Of a stretch of 26,428 bases of DNA, positions 14,343 to 24,014 are shown piece after piece. The stretch spans positions 1 to 26,428 of IMG/VR virus record IMGVR_UViG_3300049924_000412, one strand, 5' to 3'. The notes under the pieces were generated by a model that was not told where the DNA came from, did no database searches, and was given only the letters and a program-made list of their open reading frames with translations. The position numbers and the translations under genes were made by a program. This DNA comes from a virus. Lineage: Duplodnaviria > Caudoviricetes. Numbering within the stretch: the stretch's first letter is position 1; the number at the start of each line of letters is the position of its first letter.

Positions 14343-14543
14343 ATGAGCAAGCCTGAAAAGAATAGCGCCGCGCAATCCTTAGGCCGACTTGGAGGATTGG
14401 CCAGACGGGCCGCACTCACGCCAGAGCAACGAGTAGCTGCCTCACAGCATGCCAATGCAATCAAGCGTAAACGTGCCGCGCTACGACGGCTCTTAGGGGG
14501 ACACGATGGGGCGGAGAATTCCAGCACATTACATCCAAATTAA
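14343..14543 (+). CDS. Small basic KGG-like protein
   Basis: AAQSLGRLGGLARRAALTPEQR resembles the common small basic 'LGRxGGxARAxxLTPExR' proteins. Confidence 0.65.
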   Translation: MSKPEKNSAAQSLGRLGGLARRAALTPEQRVAASQHANAIKRKRAALRRLLGGHDGAENSSTLHPN

Positions 14544-14988
14544 TAAGCCTGCGAACCAGAGAGAATCCAAGGAAGAATGCATCCGGCGTATCTTAGAGCG
14601 AGATCGACAAGAGGAACTAGCTGAACGCGAATGGCAACGTGAAGAACGGCAATGGAAAGTTGAGTTTAATCGCTGGTGGGAGAAGAGAGTTGAGCAGTGT
14701 AACCGGAATAGCCATATCAGACGAATGCGGTTTGCAGGAACAATTGCAGCCCATGGAGAAGCGGTCAATTCGCTCACACTCCAGGAATGGAAAGCCATTA
14801 TGGCCCGCTATCAGTACCGTTGCGCCTACTGCCAACAGCGGAAACCGTTAACGAAAGATCATATTGTCCCCATCTCAAAGGGTGGATTTCATACCCATCT
14901 CAATGTCATTCCTGCATGCAAATCGTGCAATTCACGAAAGCAAGCCAGGCCCGCATTCCTGTACAAGCCTAAGTTAGTCCCATTCTAA
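14506..14988 (+). CDS. HNH endonuclease
   Basis: CAYC...LTKDHIVPISKGG.H...NVIPACKSCNSRK. Confidence 0.9.
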   Translation: MGRRIPAHYIQINKPANQRESKEECIRRILERDRQEELAEREWQREERQWKVEFNRWWEKRVEQCNRNSHIRRMRFAGTIAAHGEAVNSLTLQEWKAIMARYQYRCAYCQQRKPLTKDHIVPISKGGFHTHLNVIPACKSCNSRKQARPAFLYKPKLVPF

Positions 14989-15251: not shown

Positions 15252-15470
15252 ATGAAGACGGATACCGCAACACTCAGCGCCTATTTTAACGGGGGTTACC
15301 ACTATTGCACGGTCCGACGCACCGCAACCGGCACACTTATCTATGTGATGCATGAGGGGGGATCAGCGTCTCGCTGGAGACATGCCATCCGCCAGATCAA
15401 TGCCGGGGCAACTCCAGCGAGCTACGTATCCTCCGCAGGCGATTGTTTCGAGGTTAAAATTACTCACTAA
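15252..15470 (+). CDS. Hypothetical protein (72 aa)
   Basis: AAGGAG RBS before the ATG at 15252 (MKTDTATLS). Confidence 0.7.
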   Translation: MKTDTATLSAYFNGGYHYCTVRRTATGTLIYVMHEGGSASRWRHAIRQINAGATPASYVSSAGDCFEVKITH

Positions 15471-15504
15471 CCTGCCCGCTGCAACGGGCAGAAAGGCACA
15501 CATC

Positions 15505-16320
15505 ATGAATTTCACATCAAACAGCCAGCTGACAAACGAGAATCTTCGAGAGCTCGTCCCATCCGTCTTTGCGGACAAACCATGGACAGCCATGAGTAGC
15601 AAGTACCAGTTCATCCCTACAATCTCCATCATTGAGGGCATGCGCAAGGAGGGCTTCTCTGTTGTCGCCGCCAGACAATCCCGAACGAAGATCGAAGGGA
15701 AAGGCGATTTTACCAAGCATATCCTCAGGTTTCGCCGGAACATACAGGAGTTGGTGGTCGGCGACATCTTTCCGGAAGTCGTCTTGATCAACTCGCATGA
15801 TGGATCTAGCTCGTATCAACTCTCCTCCGGGCTCTTCCGTCTGGCCTGTTCTAACGGTATGGTCTGCCAAATGGGCCAGAGTCATGCCGACTATCGGACC
15901 CGCCACACTGGCGACATCATGGGCCAGGTGATCGAAGCGAGTTACAAGATTGTCGAAGACTTCCCGGCAATCATTGACCGCACCCAGGAATGGAGAGGCA
16001 AGAGCCTCACGACCGCGCAACAAGTGGCCTTCGCGCAATCCGCCGCCTTGCTCCGATGGGACGAAACGCAAGCGCAACCGGCTCCAGAATCCCTATTAGC
16101 CGTCCGACGGTATGCCGACAAACCAGAAGAGGGCAATGTGTGGGGCACGATGAACCGCGTACAAGAATCGCTGATCCGTGGCGGAAACCGCTACACGCAA
16201 CGAGATGAACAGGGCTATACCACACGTCGCCGCACTCGCCCCGTAACCGGGATTGATCAAGACGTGAAACTCAACAAAGCGTTGTGGGCTTTAACTGAGA
16301 AAATGGCGAGCTTGCTGTAG
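15505..16320 (+). CDS. DUF932/DUF945 (YubP/YafZ-like) family protein
   Basis: PSVFA...SSKYQFIPT, KHILRFR, PEVVLINSHDGSSSYQL..GLFRLACSNG, NRVQE.LIRGG, IDQDVKLNKALW. Start reassigned to 15505. Confidence 0.88.
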   Translation: MNFTSNSQLTNENLRELVPSVFADKPWTAMSSKYQFIPTISIIEGMRKEGFSVVAARQSRTKIEGKGDFTKHILRFRRNIQELVVGDIFPEVVLINSHDGSSSYQLSSGLFRLACSNGMVCQMGQSHADYRTRHTGDIMGQVIEASYKIVEDFPAIIDRTQEWRGKSLTTAQQVAFAQSAALLRWDETQAQPAPESLLAVRRYADKPEEGNVWGTMNRVQESLIRGGNRYTQRDEQGYTTRRRTRPVTGIDQDVKLNKALWALTEKMASLL

Positions 16321-19446: not shown

Positions 19447-19851
19447 TCACACCACATCCTTGACTCTCGCCCCATGCCGCATCGCATAATTGCCACCGAC
19501 TCGGACACAGTAATAGGCTGCCTTGGCCACTGGCCAGGACACGCCACGCTCGCGCAAGAGGCGGTAGAAAATGCCGTCAACGGTTTTGCGATACGAACTC
19601 TCCAGCTTACTTTCGCGCATGAGCTGATAGAGGGCATCGTGGATCAATGATGGGACCATCCATTTCTTAGGCGTGCCGAACCAATAGAACAAGATGAAGC
19701 TCGCGCCGTCCCACGGATACTCACTCTCAACCGTCAGCACGCCATCACATAAATCTACATACCCTGTTTGCAAAGTTAGCTTTGCCAACTCCGGAACATC
19801 CGCCCGTTCCTGCGCCTCCGTCTTGTACTTCCACCCATCGCTATACTTCAT
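19447..19851 (-). CDS. DUF1353-like protein
   Basis: Y.WDGAS...PSLIHDALYQ...D..F..LL...GV......YY.VR.GG. Confidence 0.75.
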   Translation of the reverse strand: MKYSDGWKYKTEAQERADVPELAKLTLQTGYVDLCDGVLTVESEYPWDGASFILFYWFGTPKKWMVPSLIHDALYQLMRESKLESSYRKTVDGIFYRLLRERGVSWPVAKAAYYCVRVGGNYAMRHGARVKDVV

Positions 19852-20039
19852 GGCCGTCGCGCCTCTTCAATCAGCCGTTCCTGCCGCACTAATTCCGCCT
19901 TGACCACCGCTAGATGCTGTTCAACCTGCTCCACCGTCGCCGGTCGCACCGGCTTCTGCTTGACCGCCCATTCAGACGCCGTGTAGGTTCCCGCTATCAC
20001 CAACAGAATCACGCCAATTGATCGTAGGTAGTTCGTCAT
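19848..20039 (-). CDS. Small membrane-anchored hypothetical protein
   Basis: N-terminal hydrophobic helix followed by a coiled coil. Confidence 0.65.
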   Translation of the reverse strand: MTNYLRSIGVILLVIAGTYTASEWAVKQKPVRPATVEQVEQHLAVVKAELVRQERLIEEARRP

Positions 20040-20046
20040 GTTTTCC

Positions 20047-20256
20047 TCACTTTCTCCGTTCTCTCAGCTCTTGCAAAATTGCGAATGTTACCGTTCCCCC
20101 TGGCATATACCGATAGGCTTTATCGTGCTCCTTCACCATCCGCACGACCCAGGCATGCTCACGCCTGAGCAGATCCACAGCGGTATCCGACCAAATCCCC
20201 CCATCAATCTCCATGCGCTCTTTCACCATTCGCTCAAATAGATCTGGTTGTTTCAT
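20047..20256 (-). CDS. Hypothetical protein (69 aa)
   Basis: ATGA overlap with the upstream stop. Confidence 0.65.
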   Translation of the reverse strand: MKQPDLFERMVKERMEIDGGIWSDTAVDLLRREHAWVVRMVKEHDKAYRYMPGGTVTFAILQELRERRK

Positions 20257-20972
20257 GATTCCACCTTCTTAAATTTCAAGCACCATACCCAAGGGTTCAG
20301 ATCCCACGAGCCCTTGCCGTTTATCGATTCCCAGAGATACTCATAGGCCTGGATAGGATTCCAGCGCATATCACCATCTGGTGTAACCCCTTCCGCGATC
20401 GCATCTTCCTCACTGATCTCTTGCAACCGCTCCACCCGTACGTCGGTCAGTTCCAGCACGGTCCGGCAGGCCCAGCGCGGCATGTAGATACCAGGTATGG
20501 TCTTGTCAAACCGTCCGATGCAATGATCATAGATGGGGTGTGGATAGGCCCATTCCGAAAGTAATCGTTTTACTCCTCCTCCTTTGTAAACCAGGTAGTC
20601 CTTGCCGTACATTGCTGCTCTCTCAATGAGAGCTGTTTGTTGTTGCGGGCTCAGATCCTCCCACCGCACATGCTTGGTGCGCTTTGACTCCTCCTCCATG
20701 CATTCCCAGTATGTAAAGGCCTCGCGCACCCAGAGCCGATCGCCGACGACCCCGAAGGGCGATTGCACTCTTGTCACCAGTCCTCCGCTCTGCTCATTCC
20801 CAATGTAGGCAACACCGTTCGAAGTACCTAACTCCCCCATTAAAATCTTGGCATCGTCATCAGGTTGCAGCTTCACAATCCGCCTGGTTTGATTTTTTAT
20901 CCCATCAAATACACGCTGGGCATTCTCAGGTGTAAATAAAATAGGCCTCTCCTTTACCGTTGGTGGGGACAT
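20253..20972 (-). CDS. ASCH/PUA-like phage protein (KERPILF...QTRR family)
   Basis: KERPILF, KNQTRR, GDRLWVRE, P.IYMPRWA.R..LE.TDVRVERLQEISEEDAIAEG, W..NPWVW...F. Confidence 0.85.
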   Translation of the reverse strand: MSPPTVKERPILFTPENAQRVFDGIKNQTRRIVKLQPDDDAKILMGELGTSNGVAYIGNEQSGGLVTRVQSPFGVVGDRLWVREAFTYWECMEEESKRTKHVRWEDLSPQQQTALIERAAMYGKDYLVYKGGGVKRLLSEWAYPHPIYDHCIGRFDKTIPGIYMPRWACRTVLELTDVRVERLQEISEEDAIAEGVTPDGDMRWNPIQAYEYLWESINGKGSWDLNPWVWCLKFKKVES

Positions 20973-21397
20973 ATCCCTCCATTCCGCACCTTGCCTTGAT
21001 TGCAGTTCGCACAGAGCAACTGGTACGCATCTTTAGGGAAACCATTTCTCTTGAGAAAGAAGTAGATAGGGCGGGCTCCACGGCCGAGCGTTTTCCTGTG
21101 ATGACATCCGTCGTTCAGAATATGGTCTAACTCTAGGAACTTCGGCTCTTTCTCCCCGCAACAGGCACAAACAGAACCGTATGCCTCAATCACTGTGGCT
21201 CGTAATCCAGCGTATCTAGTTTTCTCACGTTCATTGTTCTTGGCCTTATGCCTGTCTGACAATTCTAGCCGCCTCAGGCGAATCGCTTCCCTATTTTCCA
21301 TATACCGATCACGCTCCATACGTTTAAGCTCTTCCCTGTTATTCCTGTACCTTCGTCTGCTATAGGCAATCCGTGCGGCCCTGTCTTTTAATGGCAT
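20954..21397 (-). CDS. HNH (putative homing) endonuclease
   Basis: Basic helical N-terminus; YGSVCACCGE...LELDHILNDG...YQLLCANCN. Confidence 0.85.
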   Translation of the reverse strand: MPLKDRAARIAYSRRRYRNNREELKRMERDRYMENREAIRLRRLELSDRHKAKNNEREKTRYAGLRATVIEAYGSVCACCGEKEPKFLELDHILNDGCHHRKTLGRGARPIYFFLKRNGFPKDAYQLLCANCNQGKVRNGGICPHQR

Positions 21398-21450
21398 TCA
21401 TACACCTGCTGCGCATTCTCTGGATCCATCAAGATCGGTCGCTCTTTCAT
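21388..21450 (-). pseudogene. 5' stub of the ASCH-like gene (MKERPILMDPENAQQVYECH*)
   Basis: GGAGGA RBS; 12 of 17 residues identical to KERPILFTPENAQRVFD at the start of 20253..20972; runs into the HNH start. Confidence 0.85.
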
Positions 21451-21453
21451 AAC

Positions 21454-21540
21454 CTATTCCTCCGCCATCGCCTTGCGCCGCTCAATATAAAAGTCCCACG
21501 CCGCTTGTTCGGCTGCTTGTTCTTCCGGTGTCCTGATCAT
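21454..21540 (-). CDS. Tiny hypothetical peptide (28 aa)
   Basis: MIRTPEEQAAEQAAWDFYIERRKAMAEE; AGGAGGAG RBS and ATGA overlap. Confidence 0.55.
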   Translation of the reverse strand: MIRTPEEQAAEQAAWDFYIERRKAMAEE

Positions 21541-21734
21541 GGCTCCTCCTTTTGGTAGCGTGTGAGTTTTTGCCGTAACCGCCAAATGCCCTTATGCGCC
21601 CCCAGGACCTCACGCCGCAATTGCAGGTATTCGGCCCTGAATAATTCCGCTCTGTGACCATGTTGGTGTGCCAATCCCTCATAGTGCTGAGCCAACTGTT
21701 TCCACTTGGCAATTTCACTCCATGGCCACATCAT
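21537..21734 (-). CDS. Hypothetical protein (65 aa)
   Basis: Start/stop overlaps with both neighbours. Confidence 0.6.
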   Translation of the reverse strand: MMWPWSEIAKWKQLAQHYEGLAHQHGHRAELFRAEYLQLRREVLGAHKGIWRLRQKLTRYQKEEP

Positions 21735-22219
21735 ACCACCACATCCATGACCTCAAACCCACTCTTGCCGTTGCGAACCACCTTTTTCCACTGGAAGAAG
21801 GGAAACCGTTGGGCACTCCACTTCAGGTGTGTCATGGCGTCCCTGTAGTTGCGATGCCAGCCCTTACATTCGTATGCCGTCATCTCCATGTGCGGTTCCA
21901 AGCCGATGGTCATCTTCCACGAAATAAAGTCCACGCGATACCGCTTCCCCTCCGCGAGCTTGAACGTGAACGGCTCGTACAGCCAGCCGTCTATCTCGCC
22001 CATGCGCTTCATCGCCTCCAGCCGTACAGCCCAAGAAAGCTCCAGCTTGCTTCGGTAGGGAGGTTTAGAGGGTGAGGGGGCCAGAGTCGAACTGGCTCCG
22101 CTTATTTTCTTCGTCGGATATGTCCTCGTTACACTTCCGCGTATTGAGGCTTCCATGTGGCCCCCGCCACCGCCCCTCACCTGCTTCAAATCCTCTTCAC
22201 TCCAACGATAGGCTTTCAT
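21731..22219 (-). CDS. PD-(D/E)XK endonuclease (DUF1064-like, possible resolvase)
   Basis: YRSKLE..WA..L...K..GEI..W.YEP..FKLA....Y.VDF...YECKG. Confidence 0.75.
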   Translation of the reverse strand: MKAYRWSEEDLKQVRGGGGGHMEASIRGSVTRTYPTKKISGASSTLAPSPSKPPYRSKLELSWAVRLEAMKRMGEIDGWLYEPFTFKLAEGKRYRVDFISWKMTIGLEPHMEMTAYECKGWHRNYRDAMTHLKWSAQRFPFFQWKKVVRNGKSGFEVMDVVV

Positions 22220-23070
22220 CGAAGGACCCCCAAGCGTTTCAAGGTCAACGCTTTGGCTTTCTCGACCGCCTGTTGATCCTCCTCGCTATGTGCGTCGCGC
22301 TCATCCATCCACGCATTCATAACTGCCGCGAATTCCGCCTTGCTTTCGCACAGCACCAATTGCTGGCAGACATTCGAGGCGATGAGTTGAGGTGGAGCAG
22401 CATCGCGAGCTTGCTGAGTGACACCTTCTTCCGGTTGTCTCACGCCGTCCCGCTCCACCGGCTTGTTATTGCGTTGCATCTTATCCAACACCGCCGCGCC
22501 CTTGTCCGGCTTGCGTTCCGGTGTCCGTGGCCGCTGCATGGGCTCTTCCCCGGCCTGATCCAGCTCCTCACGCACATAGAGCCCGCTCAATTCCGACGGG
22601 AATGCCTTGCGTAGCGCCAGAGCCTCCGCACATTTCTCCAACATCCTGTTCGGCATCTTCTTCCACATATGCCCTTGCTGATCGCCAGGGTAGTATTCAC
22701 TCCATCGCGCCGTAGCCGACCATGCCCCCCGATTGCCCATGCCACGATCCCGATGCACCCTTACCGTCGCTTCAAAATCGACCGATCCCGGTTTCCCCTT
22801 GAACACCGTTTCATCCTGGCCTGCAAACTGATTTGTGGCGTGTGCGCGTTGATAGAAGAAATCAATACTGGTAATCGGGACATACCGCCCGCCACGCTTG
22901 GTAAAATGAATCAACCGATCCAACGGATGCACGCCACGCCGCTTACAATCATAGAAATACAACTGCATTTCGGAGTCCGTCGCATCCTTACAGACCGTGC
23001 TCTTGATGATGTCCACTTGTTCCCCTGTAATCACCACTTCTCCCGCTTCCTTGACCATCAGCTCGTTCAT
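22216..23070 (-). CDS. bet: Phage recombination protein Bet (RecT/Red-beta family)
   Basis: TSIDFF...A..T.QFAG, ARWSEY, W.KMP..ML.KCAEALALRKAFP.ELSGLY..EE. Confidence 0.9.
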   Translation of the reverse strand: MNELMVKEAGEVVITGEQVDIIKSTVCKDATDSEMQLYFYDCKRRGVHPLDRLIHFTKRGGRYVPITSIDFFYQRAHATNQFAGQDETVFKGKPGSVDFEATVRVHRDRGMGNRGAWSATARWSEYYPGDQQGHMWKKMPNRMLEKCAEALALRKAFPSELSGLYVREELDQAGEEPMQRPRTPERKPDKGAAVLDKMQRNNKPVERDGVRQPEEGVTQQARDAAPPQLIASNVCQQLVLCESKAEFAAVMNAWMDERDAHSEEDQQAVEKAKALTLKRLGVLR

Positions 23071-24014
23071 ACTGCCTCCTTTGCTGGCTTGATGAGAAAC
23101 CGACGTGAGCCCGGCCTTGTCTTCGCTTCCAGACAGGCCGCGTACGCATCAGGATAAGTCGCTTTCAGCTTCTCGACGTTCAGCTTTTCACTCACCGAAT
23201 CCTTCGCCCGTTTCCAGGTGATGCTACCAAACCCCTCAAGGATCATTTCCGACGCATCTCCACAGGCATTCTTGAGCATGTTCTCGTAGCGCGTCTGATC
23301 CGCCTCATACCCCTTCAGTGCGGTTTTGAGCGCCACCAACGAGTTCGCCGCTTCGATCAATTCCGGTGCATTCACCGTCAACACCTTGCCGGTATCCTTG
23401 GGGTACATCCGTTTAATCAGATCAGCAGTCCTTGTAGACCCATCCACCGGCGGCGGGTTGCGCGTCTGCACCCGCTCCCAAAATTCCGCCTCTTGTTTGA
23501 TCAGTTCAGCAATTACATCGTCATTCCGGTCGATGTCGAACCAGACAAACCGAGAGGTGCCGATCAGCACGCCGAACGAGGCCCATGCGTAGTCATAGAC
23601 CGCCATATAATGTTGGGCCTGAATGTAGTAGTGATCCGGCACATCATTGGCCCCATGGATCTCGCGCCCGCTCCATTCGTTCGTCGTCTTCCCTTCATAG
23701 ATCCCCGGCCCACGTGGATCATTGATAATCTGTCGGTCAATGTTCGCCAGCATCCATGGGTAGTCGTCGTGTGCCACCATCGGTTGTCGCCGCACCGCCC
23801 GACCAGTTCTGAGGCGGTAGAGCTGTACGACGGGCTCCTCCAGGATGTTCCCCAGTTCCATCGCCAAGGTTTCTTCTTCATCAGGGAGTTCAACCCCCAT
23901 CTTTTCCAAACAGAGCTGATAGGGGCTCTTAAATGGAGACAATCCGACCACCACCGCCGCATCTGTGCCCCCAATGCCAGCTTTCCGTGCTTCCAATTGT
24001 GCTTCCGTCAGCAT
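23067..24014 (-). CDS. YqaJ-like (lambda-exo family) exonuclease
   Basis: RKAGIGGTD...GLSPFKSPYQL, G..LE, ANIDR, YEGKT, VPDHYYIQAQHYM, FWERV. Confidence 0.92.
   Translation of the reverse strand: MLTEAQLEARKAGIGGTDAAVVVGLSPFKSPYQLCLEKMGVELPDEEETLAMELGNILEEPVVQLYRLRTGRAVRRQPMVAHDDYPWMLANIDRQIINDPRGPGIYEGKTTNEWSGREIHGANDVPDHYYIQAQHYMAVYDYAWASFGVLIGTSRFVWFDIDRNDDVIAELIKQEAEFWERVQTRNPPPVDGSTRTADLIKRMYPKDTGKVLTVNAPELIEAANSLVALKTALKGYEADQTRYENMLKNACGDASEMILEGFGSITWKRAKDSVSEKLNVEKLKATYPDAYAACLEAKTRPGSRRFLIKPAKEAV

Follow-up and report, generated by a model that had tools for sequence, protein, structure and literature searches.

Prokaryotic homing elements are described as introns, inteins or intergenic genes. 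At one locus of the DNA analysed here (the window, a stretch of 26,428 nt) a gene for an HNH endonuclease lies between a short open reading frame resembling the start of an ASCH-fold gene and a complete ASCH-fold gene whose own start lies within the end of the nuclease gene. What kind of element has this form, and how would it move?

Organization of the locus

The window is a 26.4-kb tailed-phage fragment from a source record that is 55% complete (IMG/VR), and identical DNA is present in aquatic and freshwater-sediment sequencing runs. Pfam and PHROG matches show that it encodes a P22-like portal, capsid, terminase and replication initiator, as well as a RecE/RecT pair. The locus lies on the minus strand, within the recombination-replication part of the window. 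Its features are as follows, where the stub is the short reading frame, the replacement is the new gene start, the body is the remainder of the ASCH-fold (host) gene, and the cassette is the HNH gene with the replacement.

23067-24014, minus: RecE-like exonuclease (context at 22216..24014, outside the cassette)
22216-23070, minus: RecT-like annealing protein (context, outside the cassette)
21458..21463, minus: GGAGGA, ribosome-binding site of the original gene start, 7 nt upstream of the stub ATG (from the sequence)
21388..21450, minus: stub ORF, MKERPILMDPENAQQVYECH and a stop codon; the 18 first codons of the original ASCH-fold gene plus 2 read-through codons
21403..21407, minus: AGGTG within the stub, candidate ribosome-binding site of the HNH gene, 5 nt upstream of its ATG (from the sequence)
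20954..21397, minus: HNH (His-Me finger) endonuclease gene, 147 aa (PHROG match, conserved residues)
20976..20980, minus: GGAGG formed by the HNH Gly-Gly codons, candidate ribosome-binding site at a short spacing, 3 nt before the restart ATG
20970..20972, minus: restart ATG; the final A of HNH Ile142 (ATA) followed by the TG of Cys143 (TGT)
20886..20972, minus: codons 1-29 of the ASCH-fold gene (replacement 5' end), whose silent positions are AT-rich; putatively part of the cassette
20886..20897, minus: presumed target in altered form, AAA AAT CAA ACC (K-N-Q-T); intact alleles mostly have AAG ACG CAG ACG (K-T-Q-T)
20253..20885, minus: ASCH-fold gene body (PHROG 874); its closest relatives, P0077 and P0074, are proteins that begin like the stub

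A sequence-only reading of this DNA had proposed the order of stub, HNH gene and restarted gene, and we confirmed it at 21450-21388, 21397-20954 and 20972-20253 (minus strand). The stub stop ends 10 nt within the HNH gene, and the start of the complete ASCH-fold gene (20972-20253) precedes the HNH gene end by 19 nt. A recount of the residues shared by stub and replacement gave the same result as that reading, 12 of 17 identical and 8 of these 12 with other codons. The AT-richness that it attributed to the new copy was also borne out, as codons 7-23 of the replacement head (GC 0.41, GC3 0.35) are even more AT-rich than the HNH gene (GC 0.49, GC3 0.53). Most large genes of this phage have a GC of 0.55-0.57 and a GC3 of 0.60-0.70, the exception being one replication gene (0.46/0.44).

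The window stub scores 65 against the family motifs and none of 108 controls, taken from the DNA preceding unlinked HNH genes, reaches 35, indicating that its resemblance to the gene start is not due to chance. It holds the native start, since 50 of 69 proteins of the PENAQ type begin like the stub and none has an extension beginning M-S/P. Three of its residues are absent from all 68 close relatives (the PENAQ subfamily), which indicates that it is decaying. The replacement in the window belongs to the same subfamily, and the Asn that follows its Lys occurs in none of these 68 proteins.

There is no sign that the layout is an assembly slip: a contig of run X3, which may itself be the source of the window, spans 19600-23000 with no differences or gaps. 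Elsewhere in the window, the strand opposite the phage genes carries a second HNH gene (14506-14988, plus; Pfam HNH_5, E 9e-11) and a DUF932 gene (15352-16320, plus), both upstream of the terminase region.

The host gene and the nuclease

The host gene is a PHROG 874 match and is widespread, with 348 matching phage records that include P1, F116, Mx8 and Eta. In Foldseek searches its predicted model (mean pLDDT 68) matched an ASCH protein of L. crispatus and E. coli YqfB with probabilities of 0.98-1.00; the best E value was 0.016 (probability 1.00), with no match at E ≤ 0.001. Some of the ten best rows are structural-genomics proteins, which we take to be of the ASCH/PUA fold, and the remainder are ASCH proteins. 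The model thus points to a PUA-like ASCH fold. In YqfB, an amidohydrolase, Lys21, Thr24, Arg26 and Glu74 are catalytic and a Thr24Ser variant retains activity, according to the excerpt of PMC6972931. Host-gene K26, T29 and R31 (K, T+3 and R+5) are spaced as YqfB Lys21, Thr24 and Arg26.

Two further observations concern this gene. In the body of locus L167 and in protein P0095, an in-frame HNH_3 domain separates the G-D-R-L block of the ASCH-fold protein from the M-P-R-W block, such that L167 has two different nucleases within one gene. At L012:4251-4290, a lone 13-codon copy of a gene start (M-K-T-Q-I-K-E-R-P-I-L-F-S) lies 1.26 kb downstream of an intact gene.

The nuclease matches PHROG 2255 (E 9e-7) and PHROG 589 (E 1e-5), and a Pfam search gave no match for it or for the ASCH-fold protein. 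Long N-terminal helices are followed by C77/C79/C80, D91-H92, C129-x-N131-C132-N133 and C143-P144-H145, which are all invariant across 34 aligned relatives; D91, H92, N131, N133 and the six cysteines among them are presumably the catalytic and zinc-binding residues. The best Foldseek match to its model was a Geobacter HNH nicking enzyme (E 0.044), and nearly all top rows were HNH domains. A wide VIA-align search with the model returned only long-helix matches (Z < 5), and the HNH alignment, used as a profile against PDB sequences, returned none. Three close pairs gave pN/pS values of 0.02/0.35, 0.10/0.75 and 0.11/0.80, and the HNH is under purifying selection.

No close relative of the HNH was found in cultured phages, where 33 records were all below 60%, the best at 48% over 80% of the query. 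The cassette HNHs may have a single origin: FastTree placed 29 of 34 in one clade, but IQ-TREE (L195 omitted) placed six unlinked HNHs among them at weak nodes. Directly after the HNH in many of the unlinked loci (for example L052, L068, L072, L088, L106, L125 and L204) there is a similar GGTTCAACGACTATCCC-like motif, which may be a group I intron core element.

Recurrence of the arrangement

Scans with the HNH yielded 159 loci, 91 on viral, 57 on metagenome and 11 on genome contigs; three of 160 HNH rows, in which the C-P-H end was not readable, were dropped. A complete copy of the host gene begins at or inside the HNH end in 41 of the 159 (3/91 viral, 36/57 metagenome, 2/11 genome). Addition of the window and removal of four duplicates (L142, L146, L165, L199) gave 38 distinct cases, which are not independent events, since the cassettes share ancestry.

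The layout noted in the window recurs in this family: a stub scoring at least 35 was found in 25 of the 38 cases and in none of the 108 control regions, although two of the four scoring motifs were derived from stubs already seen, which favours five of the cases. The other 13 comprise two that score 29-32 (9 of the 108 controls reach 28), four that have no upstream DNA and seven in which the scoring gave no stub. Five of these seven are HNH remnants; L200 has a short stub recognizable by eye, and L147, whose HNH is intact, lacks one. Stubs scoring below 35 were excluded from the comparisons of site, codons and GC3 between stub and replacement.

In six loci (L172, L190, L191, L195, L196, L197) only the C-terminal 26-92 positions of the HNH profile are left before an intact host gene. 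Such C-terminal remnants are the expected end of a homing cycle. Locus L144 differs in that its stub lies ~380 nt upstream of the HNH start, with further DNA in between.

None of 165 loci selected by the host gene carried this HNH, indicating that the cassette is rare among alleles. Fifteen of the 165 were dropped because the N-terminus was unusable or not distinct, leaving 150 intact alleles for comparison. A near-identical empty allele of the window phage was not found: the closest proteins are 50-54% identical and known as protein only, and scans of viral contigs with the host gene gave full-length identities of no more than about 40%. Four sequencing runs contained no joint that skips the HNH, a result that carries no weight for contigs.

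The insertion site and its alteration

Positions at the junction were numbered from the Lys of the motif G-x-K-T-Q-T-R-R. The stubs end at K+1 to K+3 in 18 of 25 cases; five, including the window, stop short of the Lys by two to three codons and two stop earlier still. The intact alleles mostly read AAG ACG CAG ACG here, a tandem AGACGC. Comparison of stub and replacement showed that AAGAC is present in 17 of the 18 K-site stubs and that one of the 18 corresponding replacements has it. In the wider sets, it occurs in 110 of 148 intact alleles and in 6 of 38 replacements; its loss is not explained by base composition, as 27 of the 45 intact alleles in the AT-richest class keep it. The protein sequence differs as well. 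The residue after the Lys is Thr in 144 of 150 intact alleles vs 13 of 38 replacements, and Ser in 0 of 150 vs 21 of 38. Among 30 codons examined, the junction codons show the strongest differences between the alleles. Homing elements target functionally critical codons, according to the excerpt of a review (PMC2988022).

Four of the six replacements that keep AAGAC (L063, L075, L169 and L200) have stubs of ~9-10 codons and form their own HNH branch (IQ-TREE, SH-aLRT 97) in which AAGAC is kept in 4 of 4; judged from these sequences, the short-stub lineage probably uses a second target site. The remaining two, L147 and L168, belong to the main lineage and are true exceptions. Locus L163 is also in the short-stub lineage, on a contig that is cut.

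The host gene of L298 (1476-2100) shows a stub-nuclease-restart arrangement with an unrelated HNH_3 nuclease (Pfam E 4e-13), a case of convergence. Here the stub stops two codons short of the Lys (R-A-I-L-E-G), and the replacement keeps AAGACGCAGAC and differs just upstream.

The window stub stops three codons before the family insertion site and has no promoter after it. The junction in the window therefore probably reflects a later deletion that took the site-proximal stub codons together with the promoter. A sequence AAGACRCAGAC is absent from the window, which has one match with one mismatch (0.89 expected) and is too short to inform on this point.

Composition and ancestry of the replacement heads

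The GC3 of the replacement heads (20 codons to K+3) is 0.43, vs 0.63 for the stubs (lower in 22 of 25) and 0.55 for the bodies (lower in 27 of 35), and is not different from that of the HNH genes (P 0.27). Intact genes have a GC3 of 0.72 in the same stretch vs 0.62 in the body, the head falling below the body in only 23 of 148. The low-GC3 stretch of the replacements stops between K+3 and K+4.

Two loci, L162 and L167, are ~90% identical from the stub ATG via promoter, HNH and head to about K+10 (HNH 92%, head 88%), while their flanks and variable body are unrelated, bar one conserved block further in. Across the 13 loci with all blocks, similarity between heads tracks that between HNHs and not that between bodies (partial Mantel r 0.31, P 0.012, vs -0.30). 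The cassette-bearing bodies are scattered among intact ones, with 21 changes for 29 rows vs 27.6 in shuffles, i.e. they cluster more than shuffled rows. Nine of the 38 bodies were too short or incomplete and were left out of this tree, which is weak: its starred branches force only 2 changes. The window body is nearest P0077.

The stubs differ in subfamily, and their GC3 follows that of the body (rho 0.86) more than that of the HNH (0.71). Stubs of close pairs differ mostly at silent sites, as if they came from different working genes. Within a locus, stub and replacement share 0.60 of residues vs 0.51 in permuted pairs (0 of 2000 permutations); with the common subfamily of stub and replacement in the window, this indicates that the head is not a fixed foreign passenger.

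The 8 of 12 changed codons in the window (0.67) had been read as a sign of active recoding, a reading that we reject. Intact alleles differ from one another at 0.56 and replacements at 0.66 of codons for shared residues, making the window value unremarkable by itself. Within loci the difference is 0.776 vs 0.729 in permuted pairs (P = 0.043; the loci are not independent), a silent excess that is weakly compatible with selection against recombination between the copies. The site-specific change is a stronger signal than the overall codon difference, and much of the apparent recoding may be the divergence of a foreign donor.

Expression and the embedded start codon

A sigma70-like promoter (at least 10/12) directly follows the stub in 10 of 18 long-stub cases; none of 150 intact genes has one at the corresponding place, and the rate in random stretches is 1.7%. 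Several of these promoters would be nearly leaderless. A promoter scan of window positions 20200-21800 gave none above chance and none before the HNH gene. In L154, L063 and protein P0003 the stub is fused in frame to the HNH, and other stubs read far into the HNH out of frame. Translational coupling of the HNH to the old start, as proposed earlier, fits the window, with its stop 10 nt inside the HNH gene and no promoter, and is not a rule of the family in view of the promoters and fusions. In L062, L148, L149 and L150 the spacer between stub and HNH that holds the promoter contains GTGTCTT, the reverse complement of the K-T codons. It is possible, as a lead only, that GTGTCTT is a candidate operator or a hairpin partner of the stub end. 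I-TevI has an operator that overlaps its promoter, as noted in the excerpt of PMC2988022.

The restart ATG sits in the HNH motif G-G-I-C-P-H, where it is formed by the last base of the codon before the Cys and the TG of the Cys codon, and the Gly codons yield GGAGG. Among linked HNHs, 30 of 38 have A as the third base of the codon preceding the Cys, vs 13 of 82 unlinked HNHs (background 0.27 and 0.25); split by frame, the linked count is 30 of 31 where the ATG shares the reading frame of the host gene and 0 of 7 where it does not. Because the host start codon lies within the last codons of the nuclease, the nuclease tail is predicted to outlast the rest of the gene.

Proposed mechanism and alternative explanations

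We consider it reasonably likely (probability roughly 0.7) that the locus is a splicing-free homing cassette that uses the stub as its left homology arm, a reading based on comparison of sequences. The mobile, non-splicing cassette in a conserved coding site that had been suggested from the window is upheld by the common insertion point, the altered site, the GC3 edge and the L162/L167 pair. The cassette would comprise the HNH gene and its own copy of the ~29 first codons of the host gene, leaving the old 5' end as a stub and the gene whole. The nuclease would cut or nick intact alleles at or near AAGACGCAGAC. On co-infection, the phage carrying the cassette would serve as template for repair of the break, possibly by the phage RecE/RecT pair. 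Homology would be provided on the left by the stub and on the right by gene sequence downstream of the site, and the recipient's own 5' end would become the new stub. The replacement would escape cutting via its changed site (AAA TCN CAA, or AAA AAT CAA in the window) and would still encode the Lys, Thr/Ser and Arg whose spacing matches that of the YqfB catalytic residues. Translation of the HNH in the window may have been left dependent on reading of the stub or on the AGGTG inside it.

An alternative that we regard as unlikely takes the cassette to be real and dispenses with homing at the site: an HNH-gene module would have spread by mosaic recombination, with the stub as an old illegitimate insertion and the codon changes as neutral donor divergence. 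Given shared ancestry, one event each could indeed account for the Ser and for the A-ending codons, the silent divergence of stub and replacement in a locus is barely above that of permuted pairs, and the body tree is poorly resolved for a host gene that is mosaic anyway. Such a module does not account well for stubs that differ in subfamily and track body GC3 more closely than HNH GC3, for the mostly silent divergence of close-pair stubs, as from separate working genes, or for the concentration of the strongest allele differences at the junction and the separate stub ends of separate HNH lineages.

It is quite improbable that the HNH and the ASCH-fold protein form a functional pair, like a split PUA-HNH modification-dependent nuclease, with the stub being incidental. 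Tight overlap and purifying selection would suit a pair, and fusions of PUA-superfamily and HNH domains are known as restriction enzymes (excerpts of PMC7897488 and PMC6765204). Yet the HNH is missing from all 165 host-gene-selected loci, the host gene persists in six loci where only a dead HNH remnant precedes it, and a pair predicts neither the stub nor the changed junction site. It is very improbable that the gene start was duplicated locally in tandem and that an unrelated HNH came to lie between the two copies, an origin that the sequence-only reading had named as a possible refutation and that the family survey largely refuted. The window stub and replacement are of one subfamily, as it predicts; against it, the layout occurs in 25 distinct loci with one HNH family, the restart codon lies inside the HNH, and the copies differ at 0.78 of codons for identical residues vs 0.56 for unrelated intact alleles. 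Finally, a self-splicing intron whose removal joins stub to body is hardly credible, even though HNH genes within phage genes are usually intron-encoded (excerpt of PMC2988022), because the overlap of the HNH with both neighbours leaves no space in which a ribozyme core could fit, the gene downstream is whole and has a start of its own, and Rfam gave no match in 9 loci.

The homing cassette may be part of a wider pattern, which we put forward tentatively and at somewhat less than even odds. Phages would host WHO-like non-splicing elements that replace gene starts, and the ASCH-fold gene would be a contested hotspot for at least three HNH lineages (the main clade at K-T-Q-T, the short-stub lineage at codon 9-10 and the unrelated HNH_3 near codon 18), each with a start altered at its own site. 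The stub would be a working arm renewed from each recipient, allowing homing between phages with unrelated flanks; the nuclease would repress its own promoter via the inverted target; and the location of the start codon in a zinc-ligand codon would make the nuclease tail undeletable.

Relation to known homing elements

The WHO elements of Torulaspora and Lachancea (Coughlan et al. 2020, PMC7282813; Osborne et al. 2026, 10.64898/2026.08.13.744650), as described in the excerpts of these papers, resemble the cassette in that an endonuclease gene is combined with an alternative end of the host gene, splicing is not involved, and the native fragment is displaced to the far side. The displaced fragment is proposed to be a second homology region, and resistance comes from allelic sequence difference. 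In WHO elements the 3' half of the essential FBA1 gene is replaced, by a LAGLIDADG-zinc-finger enzyme related to HO, in diploid yeast, whereas the cassette has an HNH nuclease, ~29 5' codons of a phage ASCH-fold gene and a host start codon inside the nuclease gene. WHO elements build clusters, and none was seen for the cassette. WHO cleavage is described in those excerpts as demonstrated, whereas the cassette is known here by its signature in sequence alone (AAGAC in 17 of 18 stubs and 1 of 18 replacements).

The mORFs of fungal mitochondria (Allomyces atp6; Glomus atp6, atp9, cox2 and nad3; Beaudet et al. 2013, PMC3630166) are also similar, as the excerpt of that paper describes endonuclease ORFs that carry a divergent duplicate of a gene terminus. 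These replace the C-terminus in mtDNA and encode LAGLIDADG or GIY-YIG enzymes, in contrast to the N-terminal replacement, HNH nuclease and phage genome of the cassette. The cassette is a 5' mirror of WHO elements and mORFs and a member of neither, since nuclease family, gene end and host differ.

Free-standing homing endonucleases of the T4 type (seg, mob; PMC2988022) share with the cassette the phage host, a free-standing HNH and overlap with neighbours, and the excerpt of the review also describes allele-specific cutting, with the promoter-overlapping operator of I-TevI resembling the candidate operator of the cassette. They are intergenic, with cleavage sites at a distance of hundreds to thousands of bases, or divide one gene so that it yields two working polypeptides (Aeh1 nrdA, T4 gene 39/60). 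The cassette, by contrast, sits within the 5' end of a gene and its presumed site is the insertion point; none of the T4-type enzymes in that excerpt supplies a replacement start. The lack of a ribozyme core match (Rfam, 9 loci) and the complete downstream gene also set the cassette apart from endonucleases encoded by group I introns. The excerpt of an ICP1 survey (PMC10448857) contains no such layout, and a literature search, which covered main texts, mostly of non-subscription journals, found no report of a phage endonuclease with a replacement 5' end.

In the literature found, the design is known only as a 3' replacement, in yeasts and fungal mitochondria. A start-replacing form would add a way for a selfish nuclease to sit cost-free in a gene and would create chimeric phage genes with foreign N-termini. 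The cassette family offers a target predicted at codon resolution, a predicted resistance change and natural remnants, in a host gene that is present in the four cultured phages named above. For annotation, M-S/P-x-Q extensions and short upstream ORFs in the host-gene family should be regarded as traces of the cassette.
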